56,743 bases of DNA from a virus: IMG/VR virus record IMGVR_UViG_3300037484_000539, positions 1 to 56,743 of that record. One strand, written 5' to 3'. The position numbers and the translations under genes are program-made. Below, piece by piece: positions 4,320-53,944 of this stretch. The first letter of the stretch is position 1; every line of letters begins with the position of its first letter. The notes beneath the pieces were generated by a model. It ran no database searches and was not told the origin of the DNA. It worked only from the letters and a program-made list of their open reading frames with translations.

Positions 4320-4330
4320 GTCAAGTGGAA
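4320..4330 (-). promoter_or_regulatory. TTCCACTTGAC box (exact), facing left
   Basis: The plus strand reads gtcaagtggaa. A 5-codon mini-ORF ATG lies 32 nt downstream, and the ATG of the 56-aa ORF lies 54 nt downstream. Confidence 0.6.
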
Positions 4331-4632
4331 ATTATTTCACGCTTCATTCTGGCATGTCGGACGGTTCCGGGGTGGCAGCCAAGCTTGCGTGCAATGGCGC
4401 TGTTGGTGCGGCCCCAGTCCGTTTTGCTGAAGTCATATTTTACGGGAGCGCCCATGGGCCGCAAAATCCAGGCCACCGGCCACGGGGGCACGTTGATGAC
4501 CTTGGAGTTGGTGAAATAGCGCCGCAGTTCCGGGTACTGGCCGTTGCAGACCCGGCTTTGAATGGTGTTGGGATGGACGCGCCATCTTTGGGCTTCTTCG
4601 ATGACCCATTGCTTGTAGGGGATGAGGTTCAT
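4321..4632 (-). CDS. HTH DNA-binding protein
   Basis: 103 aa. The C-terminal NSAIARKLGCHPGTVRHARMK looks like a helix-turn-helix. Confidence 0.6.
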   Translation of the reverse strand: MNLIPYKQWVIEEAQRWRVHPNTIQSRVCNGQYPELRRYFTNSKVINVPPWPVAWILRPMGAPVKYDFSKTDWGRTNSAIARKLGCHPGTVRHARMKREIIST

Positions 4633-5060
4633 ATCGAATCCGCCATGCTGTTGGTTCGCGCAATTTCCTCAATCCCGTGTTTGTAGGCAGCCATGCGGGC
4701 ACCGGCGTTTTCTGGTTTGCGCATAAACCCGGACAGGAAGTCTGGATCGAGAACGGTTTGCAGACGTTGGGCTGCGCAGACTGCTTCTGCGAACACAGGC
4801 ACGGATTCCTCAAGAATTTTTAATGCTCCATCCCGCGTGGTTTTGGGGTCTTTGAATTTATCCGCGTGAAGCAATAGGTGACACGCTTTGAAAATCCATT
4901 TCTCGGCCTCCAGCCGCCTCTCCCGCGCGTCGTAACAGATATTGCAGCACAAACCCCCTACCAGCTTGTCAATCCATTCTGGAGGGCATTCCAGCGCGGC
5001 CTCAGCCACTCCTTCACGACCGCAGATTTTGCACTTGTAGAGAATTTTATGGGCTTTCAT
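4629..5060 (-). CDS. Zinc-ribbon protein, 143 aa
   Basis: CKICG...CCNIC at the N-terminus. ATGA overlap with the downstream gene. Confidence 0.6.
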   Translation of the reverse strand: MKAHKILYKCKICGREGVAEAALECPPEWIDKLVGGLCCNICYDARERRLEAEKWIFKACHLLLHADKFKDPKTTRDGALKILEESVPVFAEAVCAAQRLQTVLDPDFLSGFMRKPENAGARMAAYKHGIEEIARTNSMADSI

Positions 5061-5775
5061 GTTTTCCTAGAGAGCGGCGCATCACGGCCAAGTCCTGATC
5101 CAATGATTTCTCGCCAAGGCTTTTGGGTTTGGGCTTGCCATCAGGAAGCTTCTGGCTGGGAAAGAAGCCTTGAGATTTCCATTGAGCGATGGTGTGGGGA
5201 TAGCTCCTGATGGGTTTGCCGTTGTTTTTCCAGCCATTGCCCTCCCATTTGTTGAAAAGCCAGTCTGCGTCGGAGTCGGGAAGGCCGGTTTTGGCACAGA
5301 CAAGTTTCAGTTCTTCAAGGGAGGGATGGCCATTGCTAACCCTTTGCCCTTCCTTTTCCTTTTCCTTTTCCTTTTCCTGTAGGTTTCCCTTACCCTTCAT
5401 AGAAGGGTATGCTAACCCTTTGACTTCCCAAATGAATGGGTCTATTTCTAAGTTATGACGGGAAAGGGAAGAAAAAACAGCAAGGTGGGGCTTGCACTCT
5501 CTACTGAGAGAACCGTACTGAAACCTTATGAAGCTTCGGATCAGGATTTTACCTTCCTCCAATGCGTGCAGCCGACTCTCAAGTTCGGCCAAGTGCTGTT
5601 CCTTTACCGGGCTTCCAATCTTGGCGCTGGCGATCTTAAGACTGAACTGGACAATTCCAGCACCATCGCAGTGATCGCATAGAAAGAGCCAGAGAAGTTT
5701 TGCGGTTGGAGAGAGTTCCCAGAACCACGGGTCGTCCCATTTTTGGGTGTCGGTGAAGCGTTTCAGAAAGTCCCA
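5047..5775 (-). CDS. Replisome-organizer/DnaD-like replication protein; start codon unresolved
   Basis: The frame is open back to 5775. It encodes WDDPWFWELSPTAKLLWLFLCDHCDGAGIV, an organizer-like N-terminus, but has no in-frame ATG/GTG/TTG before TTG 5592. ATG 5776 is one nt out of frame. Confidence 0.55.
   Translation of the reverse strand, partial: WDFLKRFTDTQKWDDPWFWELSPTAKLLWLFLCDHCDGAGIVQFSLKIASAKIGSPVKEQHLAELESRLHALEEGKILIRSFIRFQYGSLSRECKPHLAVFSSLSRHNLEIDPFIWEVKGLAYPSMKGKGNLQEKEKEKEKEGQRVSNGHPSLEELKLVCAKTGLPDSDADWLFNKWEGNGWKNNGKPIRSYPHTIAQWKSQGFFPSQKLPDGKPKPKSLGEKSLDQDLAVMRRSLGKHESP
5352..5377. repeat. Hexanucleotide microsatellite (CCTTTT)x4
   Basis: Read directly. It encodes an (EK)4 linker in the 5047..5775 gene. 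Confidence 0.9.
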
Positions 5776-5927
5776 TCACTGCCGAGTCCAACACCCACCC
5801 ACCACGCGCCCATGAACGACGAATCGAAGATGGATGACAGATAGGTGCTGGACTCGATTGTGAATAGGCGTCGATTCATGGCGCACCCCAAGAGTGCCAA
5901 AGCCAACTACCGGAAGGCAACTAAATT

Positions 5928-6080
5928 CTACTTCCCGTTCTGCTTTCTTTCCCTGTCCCTGCGCTTGTGCTTTTTACAGTAGTAGCTCCCATTAGTGGGT
6001 TTTCCACAGCGCGGGCATTTCCCTTTTTCCGACTGCTTGTTCCACCATCGCATCTGGCGCGAAACTTTCTTCACCCGCAT
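5928..6080 (-). CDS. Small basic zinc-ribbon protein, 50 aa (below the ORF-track cutoff)
   Basis: Hand-translated: MRVKKVSRQMRWWNKQSEKGKCPRCGKPTNGSYYCKKHKRRDRERKQNGK. The CxxCGKP..G.YC..H pattern recurs in the 32972 HNH protein. I found no clear SD or promoter geometry. Confidence 0.35.
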   Translation of the reverse strand: MRVKKVSRQMRWWNKQSEKGKCPRCGKPTNGSYYCKKHKRRDRERKQNGK

Positions 6081-6097
6081 GGGAGGGGAGTGTATAG

Positions 6098-6108
6098 GAC
6101 AAGTGGAA
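6098..6108 (-). promoter_or_regulatory. One-mismatch box (TTCCACTTGTC), facing left
   Basis: The plus strand reads gacaagtggaa. It forms an inverted pair with the plus-strand box at 6127-6137. Confidence 0.35.
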
Positions 6109-6126: not shown

Positions 6127-6137
6127 TTCCACTTGAC
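6127..6137 (+). promoter_or_regulatory. TTCCACTTGAC box (exact)
   Basis: ATG 6169 lies 31 nt downstream. A TTGAAT -10-like hexamer sits 18 nt after TTGACG. No SD. Confidence 0.7.
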
Positions 6138-6168
6138 GTGGCGTGGATAGCCGTGGTTGAATCCAGTG

Positions 6169-6977: not shown

Positions 6978-7319
6978 ATGGATGAGGAGGATAGTAAACG
7001 AATGGGTAATGAGAGGCATGGCGGACATGATGAGCAACTAGCTCAATCCGTGTCACGGCTGGCCTACGAAATAGCCCATTTGAACAAACACTGGAAAGAA
7101 TTTATGAATGCTTTAGACACGATCACGCAGGCCGTCACGGCCAACACCGCCGCCAGCACAGCCCTCACAGAGTCCGTAAACCTCGCCATTACCAAATTGG
7201 GCACGCCAGCCAACGAAGCGGAGATTATCGCGCTGGCGGGCGTTGTGGACGCAAATACGGCCAATGCTGCTGCTCTCAAGACTGCCCTGGATGCGGCGCT
7301 GAATCCTCCCCAACCCTAA
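6978..7319 (+). CDS. Hypothetical Ala/Thr-rich helical protein
   Basis: 113-aa ORF containing NTAASTALTESVNLAI...ANTANAAALKTALDAAL. Confidence 0.55.
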   Translation: MDEEDSKRMGNERHGGHDEQLAQSVSRLAYEIAHLNKHWKEFMNALDTITQAVTANTAASTALTESVNLAITKLGTPANEAEIIALAGVVDANTANAAALKTALDAALNPPQP

Positions 7320-7355: not shown

Positions 7356-7535
7356 GTGGCAAAGAAGCTGGTGCCAAATCCTGAGTACGAGAACGCCAGA
7401 TACAGGGTGGACTATATCTGGTTTGGAGAGCCGCCCAAAATCACATTGCCGGATATTCGCACAAACAATCCGCGCTATCTGGTTGATGGATCGGTGGCCG
7501 ATCAGATACCAAGCCACATTGAGGTGGATGAATGA
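7356..7535 (+). CDS. Small protein, 59 aa (just below the ORF-track cutoff)
   Basis: GTG 7356; its stop overlaps ATG 7532 as ATGA. Sequence: VAKKLVPNPEYENARYRVDYIWFGEPPKITLPDIRTNNPRYLVDGSVADQIPSHIEVDE. Confidence 0.4.
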   Translation: MAKKLVPNPEYENARYRVDYIWFGEPPKITLPDIRTNNPRYLVDGSVADQIPSHIEVDE

Positions 7536-8707
7536 ATTTTCCCTGCCCCGGTCGCTCGGATTGCGCCCCCGCAGCAGCGGAGAGCATAGTCAGCCGAAAT
7601 TTCACGGCGGAACTGCCAGACCGGCTCACGTTCTTTAGCATTTTTTATCCTCCCCTTGGTTTTCCCGGTTTCCCTCCCGGTGGTGGAGATGGCTCAAGCC
7701 CTCCTTCATTCTGTGAATCAGACACTCAGGAAGCTGCTGATTTATGCGCCACCAGACCCCAGCCGATCCCATTTGGGGAAGGTTATCCACCCCCCATTGG
7801 AAACAACGCGCAGACCTGTGATGGGAATACAGTACCAGCCGACACGTTTTTCGCCATGACGCAGGAGCTTGCGGATGCGATTGCGTTCGCCGTGGCGTGT
7901 GATCCTGAAATCATCCTGTTCAACAACACCTCCCAGACCTGTACTCAGGACTGTGCCGGGGAAACACTGACTTACACCGTTCCTCCTGATGTGTTTGTAG
8001 GATTAGATCAGGCGAGTGCTGATTTGACGGCATTTCTGTTTGCGTGCGCCGTCCTAAGTCTGTCCTGTCAGGAAGGAAAGGAGCTCCCACCTCCTCCTAC
8101 TGCACCCAATACCAAACAGTCCTGCTCCGTAGCTTGTACAGGAGGAACTTTTACTTATACCGTTTCCTATAACACATATAGGGCGGAAAATCAGTCAGCG
8201 GCCAATGCCGTAGCTTCCACAGCGGCGTGTAATTTAGCTTCTACGTTTCTGACATGTATTACACCCATAGACGATGAGACGTGTGTGGATGATTTTTACG
8301 GTCAGGTAGTGGCTGTCACGGGGCTGTTTTCAGGCAATGTAACCAGCTTGGTGGTATCATCGGGTTCATTGCCTCCGGGAGTAATACTTTCTGGTAATTC
8401 ACTTATAGGAGTTCCAACTGTAGCTGGAGAATACAACTTCACCCTAAGAGCTACGTTCAACGGAGGACATACAGCCACAACGACTGGGGTAATCACCGTG
8501 GGTGATGTCATAGGAACACTGGCGAATGGAACTGACAACGCCCCCTACGTTGGGGTTGTGACGGCACCGGGATTTACCAATCCTATATTCTCCATTGTGG
8601 GGGGATTATTACCCAGCGGTCTGGCCCTCAATCCTAACACGGGAGTCATCAGTGGCACACCGGACACTCCGGGAGTTTACGACTTTGTGGTGGAGGCGAG
8701 CGAATGA
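7532..8707 (+). CDS. Cys-repeat protein with two C-terminal Ig-like (He_PIG-type) domains; receptor-binding candidate
   Basis: GAGGTG SD. About 3.5 repeats ending in A..A...AC, then GSLPPGVILSGNSLIGVPTVAGEYNFTL and GLLPSGLALNPNTGVISGTPDTPGVYDF. Confidence 0.6.
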   Translation: MNFPCPGRSDCAPAAAESIVSRNFTAELPDRLTFFSIFYPPLGFPGFPPGGGDGSSPPSFCESDTQEAADLCATRPQPIPFGEGYPPPIGNNAQTCDGNTVPADTFFAMTQELADAIAFAVACDPEIILFNNTSQTCTQDCAGETLTYTVPPDVFVGLDQASADLTAFLFACAVLSLSCQEGKELPPPPTAPNTKQSCSVACTGGTFTYTVSYNTYRAENQSAANAVASTAACNLASTFLTCITPIDDETCVDDFYGQVVAVTGLFSGNVTSLVVSSGSLPPGVILSGNSLIGVPTVAGEYNFTLRATFNGGHTATTTGVITVGDVIGTLANGTDNAPYVGVVTAPGFTNPIFSIVGGLLPSGLALNPNTGVISGTPDTPGVYDFVVEASE

Positions 8708-9225: not shown

Positions 9226-9236
9226 TTCCACTTGAC
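9226..9236 (+). promoter_or_regulatory. TTCCACTTGAC box (exact)
   Basis: ATG 9266 of the unlisted 43-aa ORF lies 29 nt downstream. No SD. Confidence 0.65.
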
Positions 9237-9265
9237 ACGGTGCGCAAAAACCCCATGATGCGCGC

Positions 9266-11309: not shown

Positions 11310-12347
11310 GTGAAGGTCACTGTCAACGATGTACTGCAAAGCAGGATTCCGCATTCAATCGGAAAGTGCGCCACCGACCTTCCTGAAATTTGCAGCTATC
11401 TGAACGAGGCAATCAGCCGACTGCTCATCGCCGCTCCCGATACGGGTTGGTGGAAAACTTGGGAAAAAGTAGTCTTCAACGTCGATAGAACCACTCCTTA
11501 CCTGACACTTCCGGCCAAGTACGCCCGTGCTGCCGGAATTGATATTTGCAGAACCCCAGTTGGGGTGAACAATGAGTGGTACGAGTTCATGGAGTACGGT
11601 GTGGGCCTTCAAACCATCTGCACTTCCAAATCTCCTTGTGCCGTGATGGATGCGTTTGATCGGGGTTCAGTTGCCACGGCTTACGATCTTACCCCGACCA
11701 ACCAACTCATCCGAGTTTATCTAACGGACATAAGGGACGTGGGCCGGAAAATTCTTTTTACTGGTGCCATCGACCAGAACGGAAACGGGATTTACGAGCA
11801 AAATGGACTAACAAGTTTGAATGGGTTCATGCTTACTCTCACCACCCCATTTGTCACCAGCGGATTCATCGTGACAGCATTCAGTTCTGTAACGAAAGAC
11901 CCGACCTATGGAGACGTGGTGGTAAAACAGGTGGATGCTACTACAGGAGTGGAAGTATTGCTTGCTCGCTATACCCCTGACGAAATAACCCCCCAGTACC
12001 GGCGCTATTTGATTAGTGGAATGCCGTGCAATTGTTGTCCTGTTACCGGAACCAACACCGTTCAAGTGACAGCGATGTGCAAGCTGGACTTCAAGCCCGT
12101 GAAAAGACCCACGGATGTTTTGCTGATTGGCAACCTAGCGGCGTTGAAGGAGGAGATGCAGAGCATCAAGTTTTCGGAACAGGATTCTTCCAAGGCCATG
12201 CAGTTCTCACTTCTCAAACACCAGCAGGCCGTCAAGCTCTTAAATCTGGAGCTTGCGAGCTATACTGGCCCAACGGATGTAGCTGTGAACGTGAGCATAT
12301 TTGGCAGCGCGCGTTTGGAGCATCAGGGAATAGGGACGATGGTTTGA
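11310..12347 (+). CDS. Putative virion structural protein, 345 aa
   Basis: GTG start after AGGGGG. First gene of a tightly coupled run that leads to the giant protein. The structural role is inferred from context only. Confidence 0.5.
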   Translation: MKVTVNDVLQSRIPHSIGKCATDLPEICSYLNEAISRLLIAAPDTGWWKTWEKVVFNVDRTTPYLTLPAKYARAAGIDICRTPVGVNNEWYEFMEYGVGLQTICTSKSPCAVMDAFDRGSVATAYDLTPTNQLIRVYLTDIRDVGRKILFTGAIDQNGNGIYEQNGLTSLNGFMLTLTTPFVTSGFIVTAFSSVTKDPTYGDVVVKQVDATTGVEVLLARYTPDEITPQYRRYLISGMPCNCCPVTGTNTVQVTAMCKLDFKPVKRPTDVLLIGNLAALKEEMQSIKFSEQDSSKAMQFSLLKHQQAVKLLNLELASYTGPTDVAVNVSIFGSARLEHQGIGTMV

Positions 12348-19275: not shown

Positions 19276-19959
19276 ATGCCACTAAAATCCAGAAACGACT
19301 TCCCCCCCAACGGTTTTACTTTCTACCAAGCCGAGACAGGCTGGACTTCCCCACCCTATATTGGCTTTTCCCCCACCGTGGATGAAATCATAAAACACCG
19401 TCAGTCCAACCCAAGATTCAAGCTGTCCACAAACAGGGGTGAAGTGGAGGTGGAGTTGGAGAACTACACCATTGCGAGATTGAAATCCCAGTACGGCGAC
19501 AAGGCCGACCAATGGATAACGGGCAATGCCCCGCCAACGGTTTTTACACCGCCCCTCCCGCGTCGCCGCGTGGTGGGGGCAGTGGGTGCTGTGGCAATCG
19601 TGCATAAGGCAGTGGCGGGGGTTGGACTTGTCCTTGATTTCCTTGGCCCCAAGCTCAAACCCGTTGATCGTCCATTGGCGGAAAAACGAGGTTCCATTTG
19701 TGCCGTATGTCCCCTAAACCAGCCCGGTACAGCTTTGGAGCAGGCCGGGGGAAAAGCCCTTCACTTATTGCTCGAATACAAGGCCGATCAAAAGATGGAG
19801 ACGATTTGGGATGACCGGCTGCTCTGGTGCCATGCTTGCGGGTGTTCGCTCAAATTAAAGGTGCATGTGGGGCTGGACTACATCCTGAGCAGGCTCAAAC
19901 CGGAGGAAGCAGCGGCGCTTGATCCAAAATGCTGGATTAGGAACCACGATTCCACTTGA
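19276..19959 (+). CDS. Hypothetical protein with a C-terminal Cys cluster
   Basis: 227 aa with CAVC...CHACGC. Its TGA stop lies inside the TTGAC of the next box. Confidence 0.55.
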   Translation: MPLKSRNDFPPNGFTFYQAETGWTSPPYIGFSPTVDEIIKHRQSNPRFKLSTNRGEVEVELENYTIARLKSQYGDKADQWITGNAPPTVFTPPLPRRRVVGAVGAVAIVHKAVAGVGLVLDFLGPKLKPVDRPLAEKRGSICAVCPLNQPGTALEQAGGKALHLLLEYKADQKMETIWDDRLLWCHACGCSLKLKVHVGLDYILSRLKPEEAAALDPKCWIRNHDST

Positions 19960-19960
19960 C
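19950..19960 (+). promoter_or_regulatory. TTCCACTTGAC box (exact)
   Basis: ATG 19992 lies 31 nt downstream. No convincing SD. Confidence 0.7.
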
Positions 19961-19991
19961 CCATATTGCTGTCCTTGGTTAGGTGTAGTGC

Positions 19992-25772: not shown

Positions 25773-25783
25773 CTCCACTTGAC
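25773..25783 (+). promoter_or_regulatory. CTCCACTTGAC box (one mismatch, at position 1)
   Basis: ATG 25814 lies 30 nt downstream. No SD. Confidence 0.65.
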
Positions 25784-30314: not shown

Positions 30315-30349
30315 CTCTTGAGTAAATCAGCATTCCACTTGACTGTCAA
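30315..30349 (-). promoter_or_regulatory. Leftward promoter candidate TTGACA-17-TTTACT
   Basis: Its TTGACA comes from the palindrome CTTGACtGTCAAG, which is shared with the first plus-strand box. Confidence 0.5.
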
Positions 30350-30403
30350 GGAGTATTTCCACTTGACATAAAACAGTGAAAATAGGGTTTTTATCCACTT
30401 GAC
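30333..30403 (+). promoter_or_regulatory. Three tandem boxes: TTCCACTTGAC at 30333 and 30357, ATCCACTTGAC at 30393
   Basis: Read directly. The third copy ends 30 nt before ATG 30434 and has an ATACTT -10-like hexamer after a 17-nt spacer. Confidence 0.7.
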
Positions 30404-37062: not shown

Positions 37063-37073
37063 GTCATAGCCTA

Positions 37074-38239: not shown

Positions 38240-38270
38240 TTCAAACAGCAGGGAGCAAACAGGGAAAGTT

Positions 38271-41130: not shown

Positions 41131-41132
41131 AG

Positions 41133-44199: not shown

Positions 44200-44390
44200 A
44201 AATTCCTCGTCATGTCCCGCTGCAATAACTTAAATGCTTTTACCTTAGCCTGAAACCTCAACCATTTTCGGGCGCATGATTTTGCACTATTCCGGGTTCT
44301 GTGCATGTGGGTGCAGGTCAGGTTGTCGCCCACCATCCCCATGTAATAATTTCCAAACACACCCTTTTTGGCTCCGACTTCCGTGCTCAT
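44196..44390 (-). CDS. Hypothetical protein, 64 aa
   Basis: ATG 44390 overlaps the upstream stop as ATGA (ORF 44196..44465). Confidence 0.45.
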   Translation of the reverse strand: MSTEVGAKKGVFGNYYMGMVGDNLTCTHMHRTRNSAKSCARKWLRFQAKVKAFKLLQRDMTRNL

Positions 44391-44764: not shown

Positions 44765-45393
44765 CAGAAGGGAATTTCCGACTCTTGTTGTGAGCTTGCC
44801 GAAGCATCTGCGTCATTGTCTGATTGATCGCCCGGAGAAGGATCGGCAAACAGCGCGGCATACTCAGGTGACTTGCCAATCTTCTCCTTGGTTTTGTCGT
44901 GCAGCGTGGCAAACACAGCGCCATCGAATTCACCGTCGTTCAACGACAGATACACGCTGGGATTGACTTGCGGGGGGCAGGTTTCACCCTCTCCCAACGG
45001 GCTGATGGAGGAGATATTGACGTATTCACCATCTTCCACCAATGCAAGTCGGCACGGTTTGCCAGTGAGGTTTTTGGGGTCGAAGCCCGCTAATTCCTCC
45101 TTGGTGAACTTTCGTCCGCGCCAACCTTCCAGCATGGGACGAAGCTTCGCTTTGGAGTGCAGGCTTTGCTTGACCGTGAGATGGATCGAGAACGGTTTGC
45201 CCTTCACTTCCGGGTTGTATTTGCCCGTCATCAATTTCAGCGGCATCTCGAATGAGATTCGCACATCCCGGCTGCCCCATGTTTCGCCCTGCCATGAGTG
45301 CTGCTGAGTGCCCAAATCAATCACCGCGTAACAGCGGGCGATGTGTGATCCCGTGGGCGGGTTCTCGAACTGCTGTCCTTCTTTCCACTTCAT
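44764..45393 (-). CDS. Phage single-stranded DNA-binding protein (DUF669-like) with an SSB-type acidic IPF tail
   Basis: The C-terminus ...DNDADASASSQQESEIPF mimics the bacterial SSB DDDIPF tip. The N-terminal PPTGSHIARCYAVIDLG is DUF669-like. Confidence 0.6.
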   Translation of the reverse strand: MKWKEGQQFENPPTGSHIARCYAVIDLGTQQHSWQGETWGSRDVRISFEMPLKLMTGKYNPEVKGKPFSIHLTVKQSLHSKAKLRPMLEGWRGRKFTKEELAGFDPKNLTGKPCRLALVEDGEYVNISSISPLGEGETCPPQVNPSVYLSLNDGEFDGAVFATLHDKTKEKIGKSPEYAALFADPSPGDQSDNDADASASSQQESEIPF

Positions 45394-45443
45394 TTAGTTT
45401 GTCTCCTTAAGTTTTGGTTTCCTTGGCTTCTGAAATTGGGATT

Positions 45444-45782
45444 TTATGCGCCTGACAGCCGCCTCCCGTGGCGGGCGAGGCGTGTTTGTAATTCGATGAA
45501 GCTGACTTTTCCAAAGTTGCGGTATTTGAAAAATGCGTGTGAGGGCATAGCGCACAACTGTCCGATGGTGGCAATGTTCGCATTGTTCAGCACGTTGGCC
45601 AGCCGCACGGAAAGTCCCAGCATGTGAACAGGCTCATCATCGCGCAAGGTTTTAGGGCCGGGTTCCGGAACGCGCATCTCCAGTTCGTGCATCAGCCTGT
45701 CTGCTGACCGGTGTAGCCTGCGCTTAACTTCTTCAGCTACGATGCTTCGTATTTCCGACTCCGACATGATATTGACTTTCAT
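45444..45782 (-). CDS. RNA polymerase alpha-subunit C-terminal-domain (alpha-CTD, HhH)-like protein
   Basis: LGLSVRLANVLNNANIATIGQLCAMPSHAFFKYRNFGKVSFIELQTRLARHG parallels alpha-CTD (LSVRSANCL...I.YIGDL...L...PNLGKKSL.EI). ATG 45782 overlaps the upstream stop as ATGA. Confidence 0.6.
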   Translation of the reverse strand: MKVNIMSESEIRSIVAEEVKRRLHRSADRLMHELEMRVPEPGPKTLRDDEPVHMLGLSVRLANVLNNANIATIGQLCAMPSHAFFKYRNFGKVSFIELQTRLARHGRRLSGA

Positions 45783-45973
45783 GTTCTTGGCTTCTGAAAT
45801 TGCTGCCGCTTTGCTTTGTTTATGTCTCTGCGCTGAAGGGCTACCGCGATGAGTGCTGAAATAGTTCCAATGACTCCAATCATCGCTATTCCAGTGAGCC
45901 ACATAATCACCGTAATAACGCCAGCCGCAATGATAAGCCCAACCTGGATTTTAAAGTACCTGTCGTTGTTCAC
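45779..45973 (-). CDS. Small two-TM membrane protein, 64 aa
   Basis: GTG 45973 lies 31 nt downstream of the box at 46005. Contains VGLIIAAGVITVIMWLTGIAMIGVIGTISALIAVAL. Confidence 0.45.
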   Translation of the reverse strand: MNNDRYFKIQVGLIIAAGVITVIMWLTGIAMIGVIGTISALIAVALQRRDINKAKRQQFQKPRT

Positions 45974-46004
45974 ACCTGCGAGCAAACCACCGCGCGGGAA
46001 ATGT

Positions 46005-46015
46005 GTCAAGTGGAA
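46005..46015 (-). promoter_or_regulatory. TTCCACTTGAC box (exact), facing left
   Basis: The plus strand reads gtcaagtggaa. It heads the 7-kb leftward DNA-metabolism operon. Confidence 0.65.
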
Positions 46016-46366
46016 TAAGTGTTGACGGGCGATTATTTTTGGGGGAGGATGGGGCATGGATTTTCTATGCGGAATATGGACAGGGCTGTGTGCTTACTAC
46101 ACATTTGACTGCATTAAAGCGATCCTCCGAATGAAACTTGAGGAGCGCCAAACGCGTGCCGTGAGACGCGCCAACCTTTGCGCATTACTGTCTCCAAAAC
46201 CAAACTGTCCGGGAAATAATTAAAACCGGGCGCTAAAGTCTCCGCTGTAAACCTGTTCTGAGACTCTAGCTATTTCTAGCGCTGGGCTGGGAACTCCGTC
46301 CAACGCATCGCCCGGAAAGAACCTGAAGGTTTGGATTTCGTTTTAATGCAACGCACTTGCCACACC

Positions 46367-46387
46367 TTAAAGCTTTGTACTTTAAGC
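46367..46387. other. 7-bp inverted repeat CTTAAAG-n7-CTTTAAG
   Basis: Read directly, about 40 nt beyond the stop of the 762-aa gene. The stem is AT-rich and there is no U-tract, so it is a weak terminator candidate. Confidence 0.3.
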
Positions 46388-46427
46388 CGCAAGTTCCTGA
46401 CGCCATCTGTTGATGGATAATACTTAC

Positions 46428-48716
46428 TCATAAAACTCTCTGCGGCACATCCGCCAACAACCCCGGATCGGTGCAGCGAATCCCCTCATAGAGGGCGCGG
46501 TCACGAGTCAAGGCGTGTACAATGATTCCCCGCACCCGGCAATTCCCTTTGATGGTGATTCTAAACTGGAACTGACCATCAATGTCCATTGGTCTGTTCA
46601 CGTTGTCGTTGCAACCCCTGGGAGGGGTAGGGAGTACCATAGGAATCCTGTACTGAGGCAGGTATGGCTGCTCAGGATAGTCACATGGAAGCAATGGGTT
46701 GGGCAATTCACAAGTATTCCGTGAAGCGCATTCCTCCCAGTGGTGCCAGAACTGCCAGCAGGGGTATTGTCCGGGACGGAACTCGACTGTGAATTCAACT
46801 TTCCCAATGAGCCTGTCCACCCACAATTCCATCGTGTCCAGTTGCTTGAACTGGAAAGGATCGCCCCAAGTAAAAGCGGGAGTTTCAAACGACCAGCGAA
46901 CCCTGTTTTCTCCTTCCACTCCACGATCCTGCGCGGCGTCTGAGGTCAATTCCCAGAGTTCTATAGCCTGATGCTCCTCGCTCCAGACAAATGCAAAAGC
47001 CCTCTGTCTCCCACCGAAGTCTCCTTTGAGCATTTGAAGGATGTTTAACCCTTCCCATGCTCCTTCCCAAGCCTGGGGAAGTTTCTCCCCAATGCTGTTC
47101 AGGAGGTCAAAATTCAGGCTCAGGATGGCCCTGTGAGCGACTCCGACGGGAGTTTGGAAGGGAAGGCAGCTTTCGAGCAAACGGTTGTCAAACGCGATTC
47201 CTGTGCCAAACCGAAGCAGGCTCCGGTCATTCTGGGAAGTAGCTCTCTGGACTTCATGTGAGATGGGGGTATTGCCAGGGCCGGAACCAAAGTTTCGGAT
47301 GGCCTGTAATAGTGAACGAACCCCATCCACGGACTGGTAATAGAGGTCGCCGTTGACCGCCACCACACTTCTGTCGCTCGTAGTTCCGAAATTGATTTGG
47401 GCCACCCTTTGAATGGGCTCTTTGAGCAAGACCCACTCGGCGCGGGTAGGAACCACGTTCACGGAATAGACATTTCGACGGGTCATGGGAAGCAACTGTC
47501 CCTCCCCTAACGCGGTGTCGAGATTGGCCGGATGTTTGAGTGCCCGGATATTCCCGGCCATCGTTGGAACGGTAAATACTCCTCCTGAAGTGAGGTAAAG
47601 ATTTTCGGTAATCTTGAGAATGGAGTCTTTGAGATTGTAGGATGCAGTGCCGGATGGCCCGCCCACAATGTCCCCGGCGAGATAATCCCGGCCATTGGCT
47701 TCCCACAACCTTCCCATGTAGTAATCCATCGGCCCCGCAGCAGGGAGTTCGGGTATGGAATAAAGTGTTGAACCAATGGCGTTAACTGTGGCTGGCACTG
47801 CACTGTCCGTGATATTGATGGCGTAAATCTGGTTGGCTCCGGGAGGGGGAAGGGTAGGGGGGTTGATGACCCAATCCGGTATAGGAAAAGGAGATGATTG
47901 GCCAGCCACGCACACACTTTGCAAAGCTTCGGTAAAGGCGGGATCAACTGGCACGGGTACGGCATTGGCAAGTCCATTGATGGGAACTACAAATGGGGCC
48001 GTGACAGTAGTGAGCAGGGTCACGCCATCATTGCGGAAAATTTGCGTGCCTGCCGGGTAGGTGCTTCCAACATTCGTGTCGCCATTGTTTTGCAGGAGGG
48101 CGGTGTCAGCCACATCTACCTGCTGATAAATCTGGCCGTTGACAATGAACCTGTCCCCCGTCCCTCCGCTATAAGGGGCTGTGAGCGTGATAAGCACGGG
48201 CTGTCCAATGGTGGGAGCGGTGAAGGCCACACTGGCCACGCCAAATGCAGTCGTGCTTCCACGGGATCGGCGCATGGTGGTACCGTCCCAAAAGAGGGGA
48301 AGGGTGGTGAAGTCCCCGGCTTGAATGACAAGGAATTGTTCTCCCTGAACCATGAAGCCAAGATCAATGTTGGGGTTGGGAAGCCCCTGAGTTATCTCGT
48401 CTGTGGAATTGTCGGTATCAACACGGGTTCTCCAGATACGCCCACCGATGGAAGAAACGATGTAAGGGAATTCTCCCGGAGGCTCATACATGTACGCCCC
48501 ATTGAACAAATCGACAATGGGCATAGTGGTGAGATACTCCCAGCCCCCTCTTGGGGAAATTCCACCCGCCCGCAGGTCGCAGTTATTACACCACGCGAGT
48601 TGGTTGGGTTTAAGTCCGTTGGGGTTTAGCTGGCCAGCGATAGTCGGGGCGACACCGCTGTTCACCCCGCCATCGAAGGAAAGCTGCCCGGTCGTGATTC
48701 GCGTCTCGCTTGGCAC
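46428..48716 (-). CDS. Large virion structural protein candidate (tail/nozzle-like), 762 aa
   Basis: Uninterrupted ORF with a GTG start. Beta-rich, Gly/Pro/Thr-rich composition. Divergent from terL. The structural role is inferred from size and context. Confidence 0.5.
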   Translation of the reverse strand: MPSETRITTGQLSFDGGVNSGVAPTIAGQLNPNGLKPNQLAWCNNCDLRAGGISPRGGWEYLTTMPIVDLFNGAYMYEPPGEFPYIVSSIGGRIWRTRVDTDNSTDEITQGLPNPNIDLGFMVQGEQFLVIQAGDFTTLPLFWDGTTMRRSRGSTTAFGVASVAFTAPTIGQPVLITLTAPYSGGTGDRFIVNGQIYQQVDVADTALLQNNGDTNVGSTYPAGTQIFRNDGVTLLTTVTAPFVVPINGLANAVPVPVDPAFTEALQSVCVAGQSSPFPIPDWVINPPTLPPPGANQIYAINITDSAVPATVNAIGSTLYSIPELPAAGPMDYYMGRLWEANGRDYLAGDIVGGPSGTASYNLKDSILKITENLYLTSGGVFTVPTMAGNIRALKHPANLDTALGEGQLLPMTRRNVYSVNVVPTRAEWVLLKEPIQRVAQINFGTTSDRSVVAVNGDLYYQSVDGVRSLLQAIRNFGSGPGNTPISHEVQRATSQNDRSLLRFGTGIAFDNRLLESCLPFQTPVGVAHRAILSLNFDLLNSIGEKLPQAWEGAWEGLNILQMLKGDFGGRQRAFAFVWSEEHQAIELWELTSDAAQDRGVEGENRVRWSFETPAFTWGDPFQFKQLDTMELWVDRLIGKVEFTVEFRPGQYPCWQFWHHWEECASRNTCELPNPLLPCDYPEQPYLPQYRIPMVLPTPPRGCNDNVNRPMDIDGQFQFRITIKGNCRVRGIIVHALTRDRALYEGIRCTDPGLLADVPQRVL

Positions 48717-48771: not shown

Positions 48772-50601
48772 ATGGAACTGGAAACATTTGGTCTGAAGTG
48801 GGAGGGAAGCTGCCAGCTTAAGATTGAAATGTTTTTCGTGAAGCATGGCGGTTATTACACCAACAAGGCCGGGGAACGGGTCGGCCTTGGGTTGAGCGCC
48901 CACCTTGAGAGGATGCGCCGAATCATCTGGCCAGAGTTGGACGGGGAGCATAATGGACAGCGCTGGCACAAGCTTTGTCGGGACACAATAAGTTCGCACA
49001 AGGTAACGGTATTGATGGGGCCGGGAAGCTCAGGAAAGACGCATGAGGCAGCATGGTCTTCTCTTTGCCGGTGGCTCTCCGATCCTGAAAATACGTGCGT
49101 GCTCGTGTCCTCAACGGACATGCGCGGGTTGAGAATGAGGGTATGGGGCGAGTTGAGTTCGCTATGGGAATCCGCTGTGGCCCGCTTTGATTTCCTTCCC
49201 GGACACATGCTCGACTCCAAGCTGGCCATCACCTTCGACGCTTCGGATGTGGACGGTGATTACAATGACCGCGTAGTGCGAAACTTTCGCGCGGCCATGA
49301 TTGGCATTCCCACCGTGCAAAATGGAAAACAGATCGGCCTTGGAAAGTGGATCGGACTGAAACAGAAGCACGTGATTTTAGTTGCAGACGAGGCCCAATT
49401 CATGGGGCCGTCCTTCCTTTCTGCTTTCGCCAACCTGAACAAGAATGAGAAGTTCACGGCGATTGTTTTGGGAAACCCTAATGACTTCCTTGATCCTCTG
49501 GGAAAAGCTGCCGAACCGATTGATGGGTGGGACAATCATCTTGAGCCGGAGAAGACCAGCGTGTGGAAAACGAGGTTCATGGACGGGGCCTGTGTGAACC
49601 TTATAGGTACCGACTCTCCAAACCTTGATTTCCCCGCAGATAAACCAACCCGGTTCAAGTACCTTATATCTCGTGAGAAGATAGCCGAGACGGCATCGTT
49701 CTTCGCCAAGGATTCGTTCGAGTATTATTCACAATGCGTAGGGGCCATGAAGATAGGTTCTCTCGCCAGACGTGTCCTTACCCGGAGGATGTGCGAGGAA
49801 GGGAAAGCCCTTGATACCAACATCGCATGGGAGGGAAGTTCGCGCACTTCAGTTTACTTTGTGGACTCCAGCTATGGAGGAGATCGCTGCGTTGGTGGGT
49901 GGGGCGAGTTTGGGAAATGCGTGGACAGGAAAGTGAGACTTCTACTTCATCCTCCAGTTATCATTCCCATCTCAGCAAGAGTGGACAAAGAACCGGAGCA
50001 GCAGATTGCCGAGTTTGTAAGACGTGAATGTGAAGGGCTTAACATCCCACCGCAGAATATGGGGCATGATGCTACCGGAAGGGGAAGCCTTGGAACCTAT
50101 TTGGCCCGTGTGTGGAGCGCGGAAACAAATCCCGTGGAATCAGGCGGGTCACCCACAGAACGCCCAGTGTCCGCCGACACGTTCACCAATGAGCCGGGAA
50201 AGCGGGGCCAGACAAGGATCGGAAGGCGGTTAAAACTCTGCAATGAGCATTACGTAAAACGGATAAGTGAATTCTGGTTCTCCGTCCGCTACGCAGTCCA
50301 GTCCAGCCAGATACGGGGAATGACGCAGGACACAATGGAGGAGTTTTGCCAGCGCGAATGGGATCGGGTGAAGGATGACAAGATTGAGATCGAGAGCAAG
50401 CTGGACATGAAGGATCGCATTGGGCGATCTCCTGACCTGGCAGACTGGGCGGCAGGCATCGTGGAAATGGCCCGGCGAAAAGGATTTGTGATTGCCAAGC
50501 TGGAGAACAATGAGGGTAAATCCAACTCCCTCCAATGGTTCGCCGATCTGGCGGCAGAGCAGGCAAGGCTCAATCAGGCGAGGGAGTTGTCGGTGGTGTA
50601 A
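48772..50601 (+). CDS. terL: Terminase large subunit
   Basis: Walker A GPGSSGKT (49018-49041), Walker B-like HVILVADEAQF, about 600 aa, and an acidic nuclease-half. Confidence 0.8.
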   Translation: MELETFGLKWEGSCQLKIEMFFVKHGGYYTNKAGERVGLGLSAHLERMRRIIWPELDGEHNGQRWHKLCRDTISSHKVTVLMGPGSSGKTHEAAWSSLCRWLSDPENTCVLVSSTDMRGLRMRVWGELSSLWESAVARFDFLPGHMLDSKLAITFDASDVDGDYNDRVVRNFRAAMIGIPTVQNGKQIGLGKWIGLKQKHVILVADEAQFMGPSFLSAFANLNKNEKFTAIVLGNPNDFLDPLGKAAEPIDGWDNHLEPEKTSVWKTRFMDGACVNLIGTDSPNLDFPADKPTRFKYLISREKIAETASFFAKDSFEYYSQCVGAMKIGSLARRVLTRRMCEEGKALDTNIAWEGSSRTSVYFVDSSYGGDRCVGGWGEFGKCVDRKVRLLLHPPVIIPISARVDKEPEQQIAEFVRRECEGLNIPPQNMGHDATGRGSLGTYLARVWSAETNPVESGGSPTERPVSADTFTNEPGKRGQTRIGRRLKLCNEHYVKRISEFWFSVRYAVQSSQIRGMTQDTMEEFCQREWDRVKDDKIEIESKLDMKDRIGRSPDLADWAAGIVEMARRKGFVIAKLENNEGKSNSLQWFADLAAEQARLNQARELSVV

Positions 50602-50658: not shown

Positions 50659-51054
50659 TTAAGCAGAACCAACGATCCAGTCTCTACCGTCGCCGCTGAT
50701 TTGGAATCGGTTGGCCGAAGTCGTTTCACGGAGCGTGGTTTGAGTAATGAAGCCTCGCGCCTTCAGCGTGTCGAGATGGTGATCGAGCAATCCGCCTTTC
50801 AGCCCCGTCTTGCGCGTAATGTCTTCCCCGGAAGCATCGCCATCTACATCAAACAGAAACTTGAGAATCATGTGCGCTTCAGGCTTGAGCGACTCCACCG
50901 GATTCGTCCCGGCTTTCAGCTTCAGATTTTCCGCAACAACCTTTTGATGCTCAAGCTGAAGCTTCTCATGCGCTGGAATGAGATTATCCAATGCGCGCTT
51001 TACCTTCGCATACTCTATTTGCAGTTTCGCATATTCATCGTTGTTCGTGCCCAT
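50659..51054 (-). CDS. Coiled-coil plus winged-helix-like DNA-binding protein
   Basis: 131 aa. The C-terminal ILKFLFDVDGDASGEDITRKTGLKGGLLDHHLDTLKARGFI looks like a wHTH. Confidence 0.5.
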   Translation of the reverse strand: MGTNNDEYAKLQIEYAKVKRALDNLIPAHEKLQLEHQKVVAENLKLKAGTNPVESLKPEAHMILKFLFDVDGDASGEDITRKTGLKGGLLDHHLDTLKARGFITQTTLRETTSANRFQISGDGRDWIVGSA

Positions 51055-51099
51055 AATTGGAGTGCGCCAATCGAATATCCCGGAATGGCAATCGTGCTA

Positions 51100-51225
51100 T
51101 CAGGTGGACTTCCAGAAACGCCAGATGCAAAAGCTAAAACCAGCCACGCCTAGAATCGCAGTCATTATGACTCCAAGGCGCGCGGCGATGCCGAAGGCAA
51201 GCCATAACGCCGCCGACGCCAACAT
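51100..51225 (-). CDS. Small hydrophobic protein, 41 aa (below the ORF-track cutoff)
   Basis: MLASAALWLAFGIAARLGVIMTAILGVAGFSFCIWRFWKST. Its ATG lies 2 nt after the upstream stop. Confidence 0.4.
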   Translation of the reverse strand: MLASAALWLAFGIAARLGVIMTAILGVAGFSFCIWRFWKST

Positions 51226-51227
51226 GG

Positions 51228-51443
51228 CTATAACCAGAACTTTAAAAGTGCCCTTGAAGCTTTCCATAGATTGTGAAGGTGAAGCTTGACTACACTTTCT
51301 TGCGGGAAAACCGCGCGCTCAATAATCCGGCAGAGCCGCAAGGCCGTGAAATGCCCGTCCAGCCTGACAGAATGCGCTACGGCGCGAACAATCAAAAACG
51401 CACTCAGCAATAGAAGCACCTGCTTGGCCGTGATCGATTTCAT
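51228..51443 (-). CDS. Hypothetical protein with an N-terminal TM segment, 71 aa
   Basis: ORF containing VLLLLSAFLIVRAVA. Confidence 0.45.
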   Translation of the reverse strand: MKSITAKQVLLLLSAFLIVRAVAHSVRLDGHFTALRLCRIIERAVFPQESVVKLHLHNLWKASRALLKFWL

Positions 51444-51634
51444 TCCTTGGTAGCGGCGGAAAACGCAATGGGCTTGATGGTGCAGGCTGAAATGTACGTC
51501 TGTTGCCTCTTGGCTATTCGCTGATTATCGAATAGCGTTAGCGCGTGCGAAGCAGTAAATGAGCAAGCGCCTTAGAAAGGGGTCAAAACGATGGTGCAGG
51601 GCCATGTTTGGCGTGCCATTCAATCCGCTGACAA

Positions 51635-52021
51635 TCAGCGATCAAGAGCTTGCGAGGCGTTTCGGTGCCGGGCGTACTGCTCCCAAAATCCAATCAGCAA
51701 AAAATGCAGAATCTTATCCCGTGTTGCTTCGCTCTGGACGCATAGTCCACCGAAAACATAAAACATCCGCCCGGCAAGCTGGGCCTCATTCAGCCGCTCC
51801 CAAACAAAAGCCGCATCTTCCCTTTCCATTACCGGCCACTGCCCATGCTCAATCCAATACTCGCACGCCAGATCAATCCGCTTACGGGCGGAAGGTTCCA
51901 GCCTTAAATGAGCAAGGCGCAATTCCTCAATCGAGCCTTGGCTTCTCTCTAAGTGAATTGCTTTTGCAAGCTGCGCCGAAGCAAGTTCGGTGAAATTTCC
52001 AGCGCGCAAGCCCGCCCCCAA
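51635..52021 (-). CDS. Hypothetical protein; start uncertain (TTG)
   Basis: 128-aa ORF that looks more protein-like than the antisense ORF 51559..51993. Confidence 0.4.
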   Translation of the reverse strand: MGAGLRAGNFTELASAQLAKAIHLERSQGSIEELRLAHLRLEPSARKRIDLACEYWIEHGQWPVMEREDAAFVWERLNEAQLAGRMFYVFGGLCVQSEATRDKILHFLLIGFWEQYARHRNASQALDR

Positions 52022-52090
52022 AAAGCCGCGCCATAAAAGCCGCTAAACGAGATTGGCGGGACGGTCTTTTTAAGATACGATCTGTCCATC

Positions 52091-52393
52091 ATGGATAGAT
52101 CGAACAATGGAGCGATGGCGGCTACAAAGCTTCGGCGGATTGTTGAAGCCTTGAATCAGGAACATCATTGGAGCATTCAGGCGCGGCCAGCGAGCTTTGA
52201 AATCGTAGTGATGAATGCCGCCTTCACAACTTCATCGCTGAGTGAGGCGTTGCTGATCGCGCTTAAAGCTTCTCTGGCGTATAATCATGCAAAGAAGAAT
52301 GCCATTCACTCACTACCCGCACTAATTCACAGCGGACAATACGAAACTCCTGCGTGGTTGTGTTCAGGACCACAATATGATCGCGCCGATTAG
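52091..52393 (+). CDS. Hypothetical protein, 100 aa
   Basis: A lone plus-strand ORF, convergent with the HEPN-like gene and followed by a terminator. Confidence 0.45.
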   Translation: MDRSNNGAMAATKLRRIVEALNQEHHWSIQARPASFEIVVMNAAFTTSSLSEALLIALKASLAYNHAKKNAIHSLPALIHSGQYETPAWLCSGPQYDRAD

Positions 52394-52415
52394 GTAACTT
52401 TTTCTCTTCAATGTA

Positions 52416-52446
52416 GCCCACTACCACCGTGCGGGCCTTTTGTTTT
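52416..52446 (+). terminator. Rho-independent terminator candidate
   Basis: GCCCAC-taccacc-GTG(C)GGGC hairpin, then CTTTTGTTTT. Confidence 0.55.
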
Positions 52447-53308
52447 AGTTTGTTGTCTTTTGACGCTCTTTAAGTTTCGTCGCCAAATGTTGCATAAAAT
52501 GTTTCACTTCGTTGAAAATTCGCAATGCCGCCTTGTCGTCTGGCGCGACATATTGTCGAACCGGAAGATCGATATGAACAGCGCGGTTCCTGATGTCTTT
52601 GAAAAACATGAAGTGGCTTGCTGCTTCCGTGTAAAATACGCGCTGCTTTGTCCACGCTTTAGGACGTTGAGGAAGGTTGTCCCGCCGATTTATCTCCGTC
52701 TCGATAGCCTCTAAAACCTTATGCCAGTTAGGATTTTTGGATTTCACCTTTAGTCGGGCCTGCAATCGCTGAAGTCCAAATTCCATGACTCTCATCACAT
52801 GGAACACGGAAGCGTGCGGCTGTTCAGTTGCTAAACATTTACCAGCCCCGGCAATATCATGCATGATTGATGGAAACGCTTTAGCTACGGATGGCCCGAA
52901 AAGATTGTCAGATTCAAAATACTCTCTGGCGTCATGGCCTATATGGAGAAACAAAACCTGCTCCATTTCTATCCGTATTGTTGAGGACACCCGATCCAGA
53001 AAAGAGCGCAGGGTGTGAACATCATTATTGCCGCGCTTCAGGAACCGGATGAACTCACCGATCTGCGCCCTTGAAACCTTAAGGCCGTCATGGCGGCAAA
53101 TACGGCGCAACTCAGCGAGACTTTTCTGGACTTCCGGCAGTCCCGTGCTGCCGCTTGTGCCGGGATTGGTTTCCTGAATATGCGCAATGCACTGGCTGAC
53201 CCTTCCGAGATAGGTTGCCACTTCAAAAAGCTGCGATGCTTTCAGATATTCCATTATCTGAAAGAGGGTAGCGGTGTCTTTCCACGGAAAATGAAATCGG
53301 GGCTTCAT
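52445..53308 (-). CDS. HEPN-like protein with an Rx4H motif (DUF4145/Abi-like)
   Basis: KDIRNRAVH (R240-x4-H245) near the C-terminus, preceded by DIAGAGKCLATEQPHASVFHVMRVMEFGL helices typical of HEPN folds. Confidence 0.55.
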   Translation of the reverse strand: MKPRFHFPWKDTATLFQIMEYLKASQLFEVATYLGRVSQCIAHIQETNPGTSGSTGLPEVQKSLAELRRICRHDGLKVSRAQIGEFIRFLKRGNNDVHTLRSFLDRVSSTIRIEMEQVLFLHIGHDAREYFESDNLFGPSVAKAFPSIMHDIAGAGKCLATEQPHASVFHVMRVMEFGLQRLQARLKVKSKNPNWHKVLEAIETEINRRDNLPQRPKAWTKQRVFYTEAASHFMFFKDIRNRAVHIDLPVRQYVAPDDKAALRIFNEVKHFMQHLATKLKERQKTTN

Positions 53309-53432
53309 AGCGGGTCATTGGGTTTTCAGCAACAAAGCGTGCCATCACTATGCGCCGCCGACTTGCTCTTTTTGTCCGTGCTTTCCGATGAACACGCTAC
53401 CGTCTTTCAGTGGGAACGAATTGGCTTTCATA

Positions 53433-53855
53433 TCAGTAAACGGCAACGCCGCGAGTGTAGATTGAATCAATGTTCTGCCCGCGCACGTCCTGCTTTCTCA
53501 AGATGTAAACAGACGCTCCCCGGCAATCGCCTTGAATGTAGGGAACGAGCCGCCGTGAGTAAGGTTTCATAAGTAAAGCGAGGCGGCGCTTGGCCCCAGC
53601 TTCACGATCTGGAATTGGTATGCGGTAATTCTTTTCGCCAGAGTAATGCGGGTAAACGCACCGAAACGGCTTATCTGTTTTCTCGTCTCTTTCTATAGAC
53701 CATGACGCATGACCATTTGAGTCTCCGCATTCCTGCTCAAACCAACTGTGAAGTGTCTTGCTGATTCGCCGCAACGCTTCCGCGTCGTGGTAGCTGATGC
53801 CGAGTTGGATTAAGCGGGCGATTACTTCCGCCCGTTCTTTAGCTGTAGTTCGCAT
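53433..53855 (-). CDS. Hypothetical protein, 140 aa
   Basis: ATG 53855 is preceded by a GGAGA SD. It is the first gene after the box at 53934. Confidence 0.55.
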   Translation of the reverse strand: MRTTAKERAEVIARLIQLGISYHDAEALRRISKTLHSWFEQECGDSNGHASWSIERDEKTDKPFRCVYPHYSGEKNYRIPIPDREAGAKRRLALLMKPYSRRLVPYIQGDCRGASVYILRKQDVRGQNIDSIYTRGVAVY

Positions 53856-53933
53856 TTGTTTATCTCCGTTGTTATGGGCTGAGTCCGCCCGTTTTTGTTT
53901 TACACGCCCACTCTGGGGCATGGCTGTTTAAGT

Positions 53934-53944
53934 GTCAAGTGGAA
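53934..53944 (-). promoter_or_regulatory. TTCCACTTGAC box (exact), facing left
   Basis: The plus strand reads gtcaagtggaa. This copy has a leader: 78 nt to ATG 53855, with an SD. Confidence 0.6.

Follow-up and report, generated by a model that had tools for sequence, protein, structure and literature searches.

What does the 11-mer TTCCACTTGAC, which recurs ahead of gene blocks in the IMG/VR virus record IMGVR_UViG_3300037484_000539, do for this phage, and what reads the six bases, TTCCAC, that precede its TTGAC? The whole stretch analysed here, 56,743 nucleotides (nt), is referred to as the window. Its positions 1–127 are an exact repeat of 56617–56743, and this 127-nt terminal direct repeat indicates that the contig is a complete genome, a closed circle or terminally redundant, of 56,616 bp unique sequence. 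The observations are best accounted for if the 11-mers are the upstream halves of sigma70-type promoters whose first genes are read from leaderless transcripts, with a lineage-specific factor acting on the six-base extension. We place the probability of this whole explanation at roughly 0.7; the promoter and leaderless parts, taken alone and judged from sequence, are about as probable or slightly more so.

Eleven copies of the box, eight exact and three with a single mismatch, were found when both strands of the whole window were searched at up to one mismatch. Dinucleotide-preserving shuffles (n = 100) gave a mean of 1.17 such copies and a maximum of 6, and never reached 11. Copies with two mismatches number 14, against about 13 expected by chance on our own estimate, and none has a promoter-like context; as they are at chance level, the motif set is sharply bounded. 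The sequence-only reading of this DNA had listed the eight exact copies and two variants at the first position, and all ten lie where it placed them and on the strands it assigned, but its list was incomplete, since a further one-mismatch copy, TTCCACTTGTC, is found at 6098..6108 (−). All 11 boxes are, as that reading held, placed between genes or over the final codon of the gene before, and all are co-oriented with the gene block downstream. At 19957–19959 (+) and 4321–4323 (−) in the window, and at 7087–7089 and 12305–12307 in the related loci L110 and L112, the TGA within TTGAC also terminates the upstream gene, so that the end of one gene overlaps the next promoter. The TTGAC pentamer is exact at 10 of the 11 sites (the exception is TTGTC at 6098), with A as the sixth base at 5 of 11. 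In an alignment of the boxes the information content is close to zero beyond the 11-mer, and there is thus no second strongly conserved element. A literature search for the motif string returned unrelated primer sequences only. Tandem boxes sought in IMG/VR gave 59 matches, nearly all of them coding tandem repeats built of CCACTTGA-type codon units and unrelated to the element described here.

The spacing between box and gene is nearly constant. Counted from the C of TTGAC, the start codon lies at 31 nt (ATG 6169), 29 nt (9266), 31 nt (19992), 30 nt (25814), 30 nt (30434) and 31 nt (GTG 45973); these distances, reported previously, are confirmed, and box 4320 (−) adds a seventh case at 31 nt. 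With the mini-open reading frame (mini-ORF) at box 4320 counted, an ATG or GTG at 29–31 nt follows 7 of the 11 boxes (chance P = 2.5e-5 for at least 7 of 11), and six of these seven starts are ATG. When TTGACN is taken as a −35 element, the best hexamers at a spacing of 16–18 bp are CAGAAC, TTGAAT, CATGAT, TTAGGT, TTTCAT, CATACT and TTTGCT, which match the −10 consensus at 2–4 of 6 positions. An extended −10 TGn is present in five of the seven predicted leaderless cases, and the other two hexamers match at 4 of 6 positions, including A−11 and T−7. The box promoters, in the window and in relatives together, have a mean −10 match of 3.08 of 6, versus 2.17 at random positions (p = 7e-4), and these elements are no weaker than those of boxless promoters; the weak candidate −10 hexamers that had been noticed downstream of TTGAC thus match better than background. 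With a discriminator of 6–7 nt, often G+C-rich (gcgcgc, tccgggg), position +1 would coincide with the initial base of the start codon. We infer the transcription start sites and leaderless translation from this geometry, which, together with the −10 spacing and the comparison with relatives, supports the earlier proposal that TTGAC is a −35 element, that the 11-mer stands at the start of transcription units and that the first gene of each is probably leaderless.

Comparison with related phages separates the promoter from the extension. The DNA compared consists of loci around homologues of the terminase, of a 485-amino-acid (aa) protein and of an 800-aa protein. Some 40 relatives at greater distance are boxless. 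In these, TTGAC followed at 29–32 nt by an ATG that opens an open reading frame (ORF) of at least 50 codons was observed 50 times against 20.5 expected (P = 2.5e-8), and the control pentamers GTCAA, TTGAA and CTGAC showed no enrichment in the same relatives. Many of these sites carry a textbook −10 element (TAnnnT) such as TATCAT, TATATT, TAGTGT or TAGGAT. This enrichment in boxless relatives suggests that leaderless sigma70-type promoters are a trait of the whole family, one that its hosts presumably share.

A scan of closer relatives, which the sequence-only reading had put forward as a check, returned the same box at the same spacing of 29–32 nt in six related genomes. The TTCCAC allele is found in four genomes: the window, the ERZ25039476 contig_52757 (loci L001 and L002; terminase 76% identical), L049/L109 (71%) and L110. 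The ERZ25039476 contig carries about nine (A/T)TCCACTTGAC boxes, with start codons at 29–32 nt for at least six of them, L049/L109 carries five TTCCACTTGAC boxes and L110 two. A single-base alternative, TTCCGC (TTCCGCTTGAC), is found in three genomes, with seven copies in L006 (70%; one ends in TTGAT), three in L047 (81%, the closest long relative) and two in L112. Some boxes occupy homologous positions, upstream of the homologues of the 75-aa gene (window 30393, L110 7080, L001 18028) and immediately downstream of the gene 19276 homologue (L001 7539, matching window 19950); at L110 7080 the promoter region of box 30393 is kept, spacer included. No genome has boxes of both alleles in promoter context; copies of the other type are limited to an isolated CTCCGCTTGAC in L049 (19693) and, in the window, a degenerate TTCCGCTTTAC (43566). 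Three copies of TTCTGATTGAC are present in L111 (terminase 75%), at 5839 (−), 14508 (−) and 2958 (+), two of them promoter-like and upstream of genes; on this thin evidence TTCTGA may represent a third allele. No box was found in the close relatives L048 (73%), L113 (79%) and L026 (69%), which have plain promoters; in L048, TTTAC or TTGAC followed by N30 and ATG stands at positions equivalent to 46005. The TTCCAC/TTCCGC extension thus appears to be a lineage-specific addition to a family-wide promoter.

We propose that the 11-mer is the upstream half of the main promoter class of this phage and would be used by the sigma70-type RNA polymerase of the host. Its −35 element is close to TTGACA, and its position is upstream of a unit and co-oriented with it, as in sigma70 promoters generally. 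TTGAC(N) would serve as the −35 element, followed by a spacer of 16–18 bp and a weak −10 element that is either TGn with a degenerate hexamer or CATnnT, keeping A−11 and T−7; after the discriminator, +1 would fall on the initial A or G of the start codon. In six or seven units the first cistron would thus be read from a leaderless mRNA, the unit of box 53934 having a leader and a Shine-Dalgarno (SD) sequence instead. TTCCAC, at −41 to −36, lies outside a standard −35 element and would be dispensable in the family, as distant and certain close relatives use plain TTGAC promoters with the same geometry. It may be the docking site of a lineage-specific, most likely phage-encoded protein that sits beside sigma region 4, at the proximal subsite of the C-terminal domain of the polymerase alpha subunit (alpha-CTD). 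We infer the existence and origin of this factor because the extension is invariant within each genome, differs by single bases between phages whose terminases are 70–81% identical, and is absent from equally close relatives with plain promoters; this pattern makes such a protein more likely than a conserved host polymerase that reads the extension directly. Of the two possibilities named earlier for TCCAC, an extended −35 element or the site of a regulator, the allele pattern favours the second, although the factor itself was not found. Since the box heads nearly every unit, structural, replication and accessory alike, the factor would be a global regulator, co-regulating nearly all transcription units of the phage as activator or repressor.

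Parts of this arrangement are familiar. Sigma70-type promoters that yield leaderless mRNAs include lambda PRM-cI, those of many genes and phages of the Actinobacteria and Deinococcus-Thermus, and those of the middle and late genes of Thermus phage phiYS40. The features shared with them, here predicted from sequence, are +1 on the A of the start codon, a preference for AUG, no SD sequence at a leaderless first gene and SD sequences at some internal genes. Promoters of the phiYS40 type are not known to have a −35 element and rely on an extended −10, and it is in the fusion of a perfect −35 element to an invariant 6-nt extension, followed by a weak −10, that the box promoters differ from such systems. 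In T4 middle promoters a MotA box centred at −30 replaces the −35 element, with AsiA and sigma appropriation. They resemble the promoters proposed here in forming a private class with a phage-specific box in the −35 region and a −10 element for host sigma70; however, the window retains TTGAC and places its extra box upstream, and no MotA or AsiA homologue was detected. TTCCAC, which abuts the −35 element on its upstream side, occupies the position of the proximal UP-element subsite and of class II activator sites (about −41.5), at which sigma region 4 is touched by alpha-CTD or by an activator. Unlike UP elements, which are degenerate and A/T-rich, this box is G+C-rich, invariant and allelic.

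Several observations weigh against this proposal, some bearing on the promoters and others on the factor. For four boxes (6098, 30333, 30357 and 53934) no usable start codon lies some 30 nt downstream. The weakness of the −10 hexamers is a further point, and a generic sigma70 scan passes only 2 of the 11 sites (9232 and 30399); by the same kind of scan, promoter-like sites were no more frequent in the window than in shuffles. A missing SD sequence is no evidence for a leaderless start, because weak SD use is general in this genome: only about a quarter of the genes are preceded by a duplex that reaches −6 kcal/mol, many upstream regions are A-rich, and by their anti-SD duplex energies the clearly internal genes at 14501, 26110, 31575, 33525, 46428 and 53948 have none. 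The earlier statement that the six box-linked starts lack an SD sequence stands in that their duplexes are weak, at −5.8 kcal/mol (GTG 45973) or weaker and mostly −3.3 or weaker, but this is not diagnostic, as many internal genes are the same in this respect; the SD sequences it had pointed to before 7532 and 53855 are present. A genome scan for the host matched only three contigs, in metagenome-assembled genome bins of three different phyla (Armatimonadota, Bryobacteraceae and Verrucomicrobia).

As for the factor, neither all-versus-all ORF clustering of four genomes with TTCCAC (A-type), three with TTCCGC (G-type), three boxless ones and one of the possible third type nor the proteins considered individually yielded a candidate that co-occurs with the box and co-varies with its allele. 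A free-standing alpha-CTD-like protein (45444–45902, −; PF03118, E = 1.6e-12, with matches to RpoA in PDB) is encoded by the second gene past box 46005 and could modulate the host RNA polymerase; no homologue of it was found in any related locus or deposited phage, so that it is unique to the window while the box occurs in relatives. The clustering did pick out two small proteins, of 75 aa (30434) and 88 aa (31120), whose genes lie in the interval bounded by the 800-aa gene and gene 31575 (430 aa). Wherever the region is covered, all box-bearing genomes encode both, and boxless L026 encodes neither, but their identities do not split by allele: the G-type L112 protein is nearer to that of the window than some A-type ones are. 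A 161-aa protein (56053) is also encoded in boxless L048, and its identities are likewise not split by allele.

A 150-aa helix-turn-helix protein resembling DnaA domain IV (40487–40939, −; E = 2e-18) has the signature DHSTVIHA, compared with DHTTVLHA in Escherichia coli, and homologues in L047, L049, L110, L113 and L007. It is probably a replication-origin binder. As a reader of the box it was rejected: its base-contacting signature, DH(S/V)T(V/I)(I/L)HA, does not differ between A-type L049 and G-type L047, so that residues do not co-vary with the allele. Copies of the DnaA box are about as frequent in the genome as expected (5 versus 4.1), and over the 36 kb examined of the ERZ contig, which bears boxes, the gene is missing. 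Nor does the box match the DnaA consensus: it shares only TCCAC with the DnaA box TTATCCACA (TTWTNCACA) and ends in CACT, not CACA, although site 30393 reads TTATCCACt. A sigma32-like interpretation (CnCTTGAA / CCCCATnT) was also rejected, as a properly placed CCCCAT is found at site 9226 only and there is no conserved second element.

The missing reader lends some plausibility to a variant in which the promoters are real but the extension forms part of an extended −35 or a UP-like element that sigma region 4 or alpha-CTD of the host RNA polymerase would contact without any phage factor, the alleles reflecting different hosts. No phage protein would then need to co-vary with the allele, the box lies exactly at the proximal alpha-CTD subsite established in E. 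coli, and −10 elements as strong as those of boxless promoters mean that an activator need not be required. We consider this possible but doubtful, as the extension is G+C-rich, unlike A/T-rich UP elements, and is invariant within each genome yet switches by one base between phages with terminases 70–81% identical. It is also missing from the equally close L048, L113 and L026 with their plain TTGAC promoters, and a boxless promoter coexists with the boxes in the window itself (30349, −). Further from the promoter proposal is the idea that the motif acts in RNA, as a 5′ untranslated element through which ribosomes or an RNA-binding protein of the phage would be recruited to starts about 30 nt further on that have no SD sequence. 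The fixed distance and the missing SD sequences would suit it, but the motif has, on our reading, no complementarity to the 3′ end of 16S rRNA, neither a structure nor an Rfam family was found for it, its −35 pentamer is perfect and has a −10 element at promoter spacing, and several copies have no start codon downstream; we give this idea hardly any credence. Only slightly better placed, and still very improbable, is a promoter of a phage-encoded RNA polymerase or of a divergent phage sigma factor. Invariance within a genome combined with an allele switch between phages is typical of T7, T3 and SP6. However, among the scanned proteins of at least 84 aa, domain scans found no RNA polymerase of the kind that T7- or N4-like promoters depend on and no sigma domain, the conserved block lies at −41 to −31, away from the start site, the TTGAC/−10 geometry recurs in boxless relatives, and the box has no second conserved element with it.

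A repressor offers another way to explain many short sites with one orientation. Stoperators of Cluster A mycobacteriophages (L5 gp71, TipsytheTRex) are asymmetric 13-bp sites present in more than 10 copies per genome, with an orientation tied to transcription; they lie in promoters and short intergenic spaces, and their specificity differs between related phages (PMC9283540). The 11-mers could correspondingly be operator- or stoperator-like sites at which a phage repressor blocks initiation or elongation, TTGAC being incidental to a prototype operator that overlapped a −35 element. The likeness is considerable: an asymmetric 11-bp site in 11 copies, all co-oriented with transcription and in short intergenic spaces or on stop codons, a triple array in a divergent region with one copy over the leftward promoter, and an allele specificity among relatives that resembles heteroimmunity. 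Cluster A stoperators, in contrast, are not promoters and keep no fixed distance to a start codon, and they belong to temperate phages with a two-domain helix-turn-helix repressor (PMC9283540), whereas 7 of the 11 boxes stand at a fixed 29–31 nt with a −10 element and start codon in register. Within the sensitivity of Pfam, no RNA polymerase, sigma factor, integrase, partition or classical (CI-like) repressor domain was found among about 75 proteins of the closed genome, and PHROG scans of 20 of them, subject to the same limit, added nothing of the polymerase, sigma, integrase or repressor kind; the phage looks virulent on this basis. The triple array and the leftward block are, moreover, missing in L110, L109 and L112, which keep one box. 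Stoperator-like sites are therefore an unlikely explanation, less so than the two preceding ones and more so than direct reading by the host polymerase, and the proposal of sigma70-type promoters with a lineage-specific factor is retained below.

The individual boxes fit this proposal to differing degrees. Box 4320..4330 (−) supplies with its TGA the stop codon of gene 4321–4632 and is followed by a candidate −10 element, CAGAAC (4296–4301, −), preceded by TG. The ATG 31 nt past it opens a mini-ORF of five codons, ATGAAAGGATCAAGGTAA (MKGSR*; 4271..4288, −), which contains AAGG upstream of the ATG at 4265 of the next, 56-aa gene and may be a leaderless upstream ORF or simply part of a short leader. 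Variant 6098 (−) is head-to-head with box 6127..6137 (+), 18 bp apart; neither a start codon at about 30 nt nor a recognisable −10 element was found for it, and it is putatively either a weak leftward promoter or a binding site only. Box 6127 has TGgTTGAAT as its −10 element (hexamer 6157–6162) ahead of the ATG of a 141-aa gene (6169), and box 9226..9236 (+) reads TTGACA-16-CATGAT (9254–9259) ahead of a 43-aa gene (9266). At 19950..19960 (+) the box overlaps the end of gene 19276–19959 and is followed by TGgTTAGGT (19979–19984) and a 190-aa gene (19992), the first in a cluster of sugar and methyl modification genes. This cluster (19992–25769, +), midway along the long rightward block, encodes an SDR/epimerase (23304–24191) and a Methyltransf_24 protein (22009–23376), its versions in relatives add radical-SAM, glycosyltransferase and HNH genes, and it may modify sugars, DNA or the virion. 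Variant CTCCACTTGAC at 25773..25783 (+), with TGaTTTCAT (25802–25807), precedes an 87-aa gene (25814) and then the 800-aa gene.

On the other strand, box 46005..46015 (−) is followed by TGgTTTGCT (45981–45986) and by GTG 45973, a valid start of a 64-codon ORF, beyond which lie the gene of the alpha-CTD-like protein and the replication module. Box 53934..53944 (−) has the candidate −10 element CAGAGT (53910–53915), and its predicted transcript would have a leader of about 48 nt and then the SD-preceded ATG 53855. The sequence past this box (53855–53933, −) resembles positions ~13860–13945 (−) of L002 in the ERZ relative (gtaaaacaaaaacgggcgg versus gtaaacaaaagcgggtg), and the two may represent a conserved leader element. 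Some degenerate or motif-less sites had been suggested to share the geometry of the boxes. One of them, the boxless TTGAC at 30345..30349 (−), 33 nt before the ATG at 30311 of a 168-aa gene, is a plausible promoter; 11278→11310, by contrast, has a good SD sequence (AGGGGG, −8.7 kcal/mol) and is probably not leaderless, and the sites before 290 and 32972 are only loosely box-like.

The boxless promoter at 30349 (−) would drive a leftward block of three genes (28590–30311), and three tandem boxes face it. The first, 30333..30343 (+), lies inside the spacer and −10 region of the leftward promoter and is part of the palindrome CTTGACtGTCAAG; the second, 30357..30367 (+), has no start codon at about 30 nt; and the third, the variant ATCCACTTGAC at 30393..30403 (+), reads TTGACT-16-CATACT (30421–30426) ahead of the 75-aa gene (30434). 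Occupancy of the boxes between 30311 and 30434 by RNA polymerase or by the factor should shut the leftward block. Neither this block nor the extra boxes are found in L110, L109 and L112, where the single box is kept, so that any such switch is a local elaboration rather than a conserved immunity region.

On a crude map the genes form blocks at 947–6080 (−), 6157–28512 (+), 28590–30311 (−), 30434–38812 (+), 38934–48716 (−) and 50659–55652 (−), with the terminase at 48772–50601 (+). No nucleotide or terminase-protein match was found among deposited phages, and a scan of IMG/VR with the single terminase sequence gave none either; in metagenomes, over 1000 relatives of the terminase are known, and many of their contigs measure 52–58 kb. 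Many relatives (terminase homologues P0009, P0016, P0031, P0036 and others) have large terminase subunits of 826–1020 aa with intein domains (PF14890, PF14528, PF13403, PF07591), and HNH endonuclease genes are dispersed through related genomes; L006 and L111 belong to the relatives concerned. The largest protein, of 1590 aa, contains LPD38 and matches only PHROGs of unknown function, and a remote relative of it is annotated as ‘putative virion structural protein’; the next are the 800-aa protein, without known function, one of 762 aa with a weak ‘virion structural protein’ match, possibly the portal, and the 609-aa terminase. The product of the 430-aa gene (31575) is possibly a capsid or scaffold protein, and its gene has tandem repeats rich in K, E and P codons (31752–31922, +). 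After this gene lies the only convincing intrinsic terminator of the genome (32889–32916, +), a 12-bp stem followed by TTTTATTT. Two adjacent Laminin_G_3 (concanavalin-like) proteins (36286–37763, +) and an immunoglobulin-like (He_PIG) protein (7532–8707, +) are probably receptor-binding or fibre proteins. Searches of PDB with the sequences of the 75-, 168- and 103-aa proteins gave no match, and the window has no tRNA genes and no Rfam matches. A stand-alone response-regulator receiver protein of about 145 aa is encoded in L002 (3679–4122, −), L112 (20591–21019, +) and WUUC01198328.1, and not in the window.

Conserved promoter motifs and leaderless transcripts are already known from phages; what is new here is a canonical −35 element fused to an invariant, allelic 6-nt box in a metagenomic phage family. 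More tentatively, and with the odds against it, these soil and sediment phages may form a clade with private promoters, in which a phage protein reads the 6-nt box (TTCCAC, TTCCGC, possibly TTCTGA) and touches sigma region 4, and in which box and reader switch specificity together. If so, this would be a new sigma-adjacent module of promoter specificity, unlike MotA/AsiA appropriation or repressor–stoperator systems, and specificity would switch between closely related phages as immunity groups do. If the promoter assignment is correct, the motif maps about nine transcription units for a phage family represented in metagenomes only, and gene callers should place starts at the ATG 29–31 nt past each box. 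The hosts would be predicted to translate leaderless mRNAs efficiently, which would narrow the search for them, and the family would possess a determinant of promoter specificity that switches by single-base alleles between sister phages.

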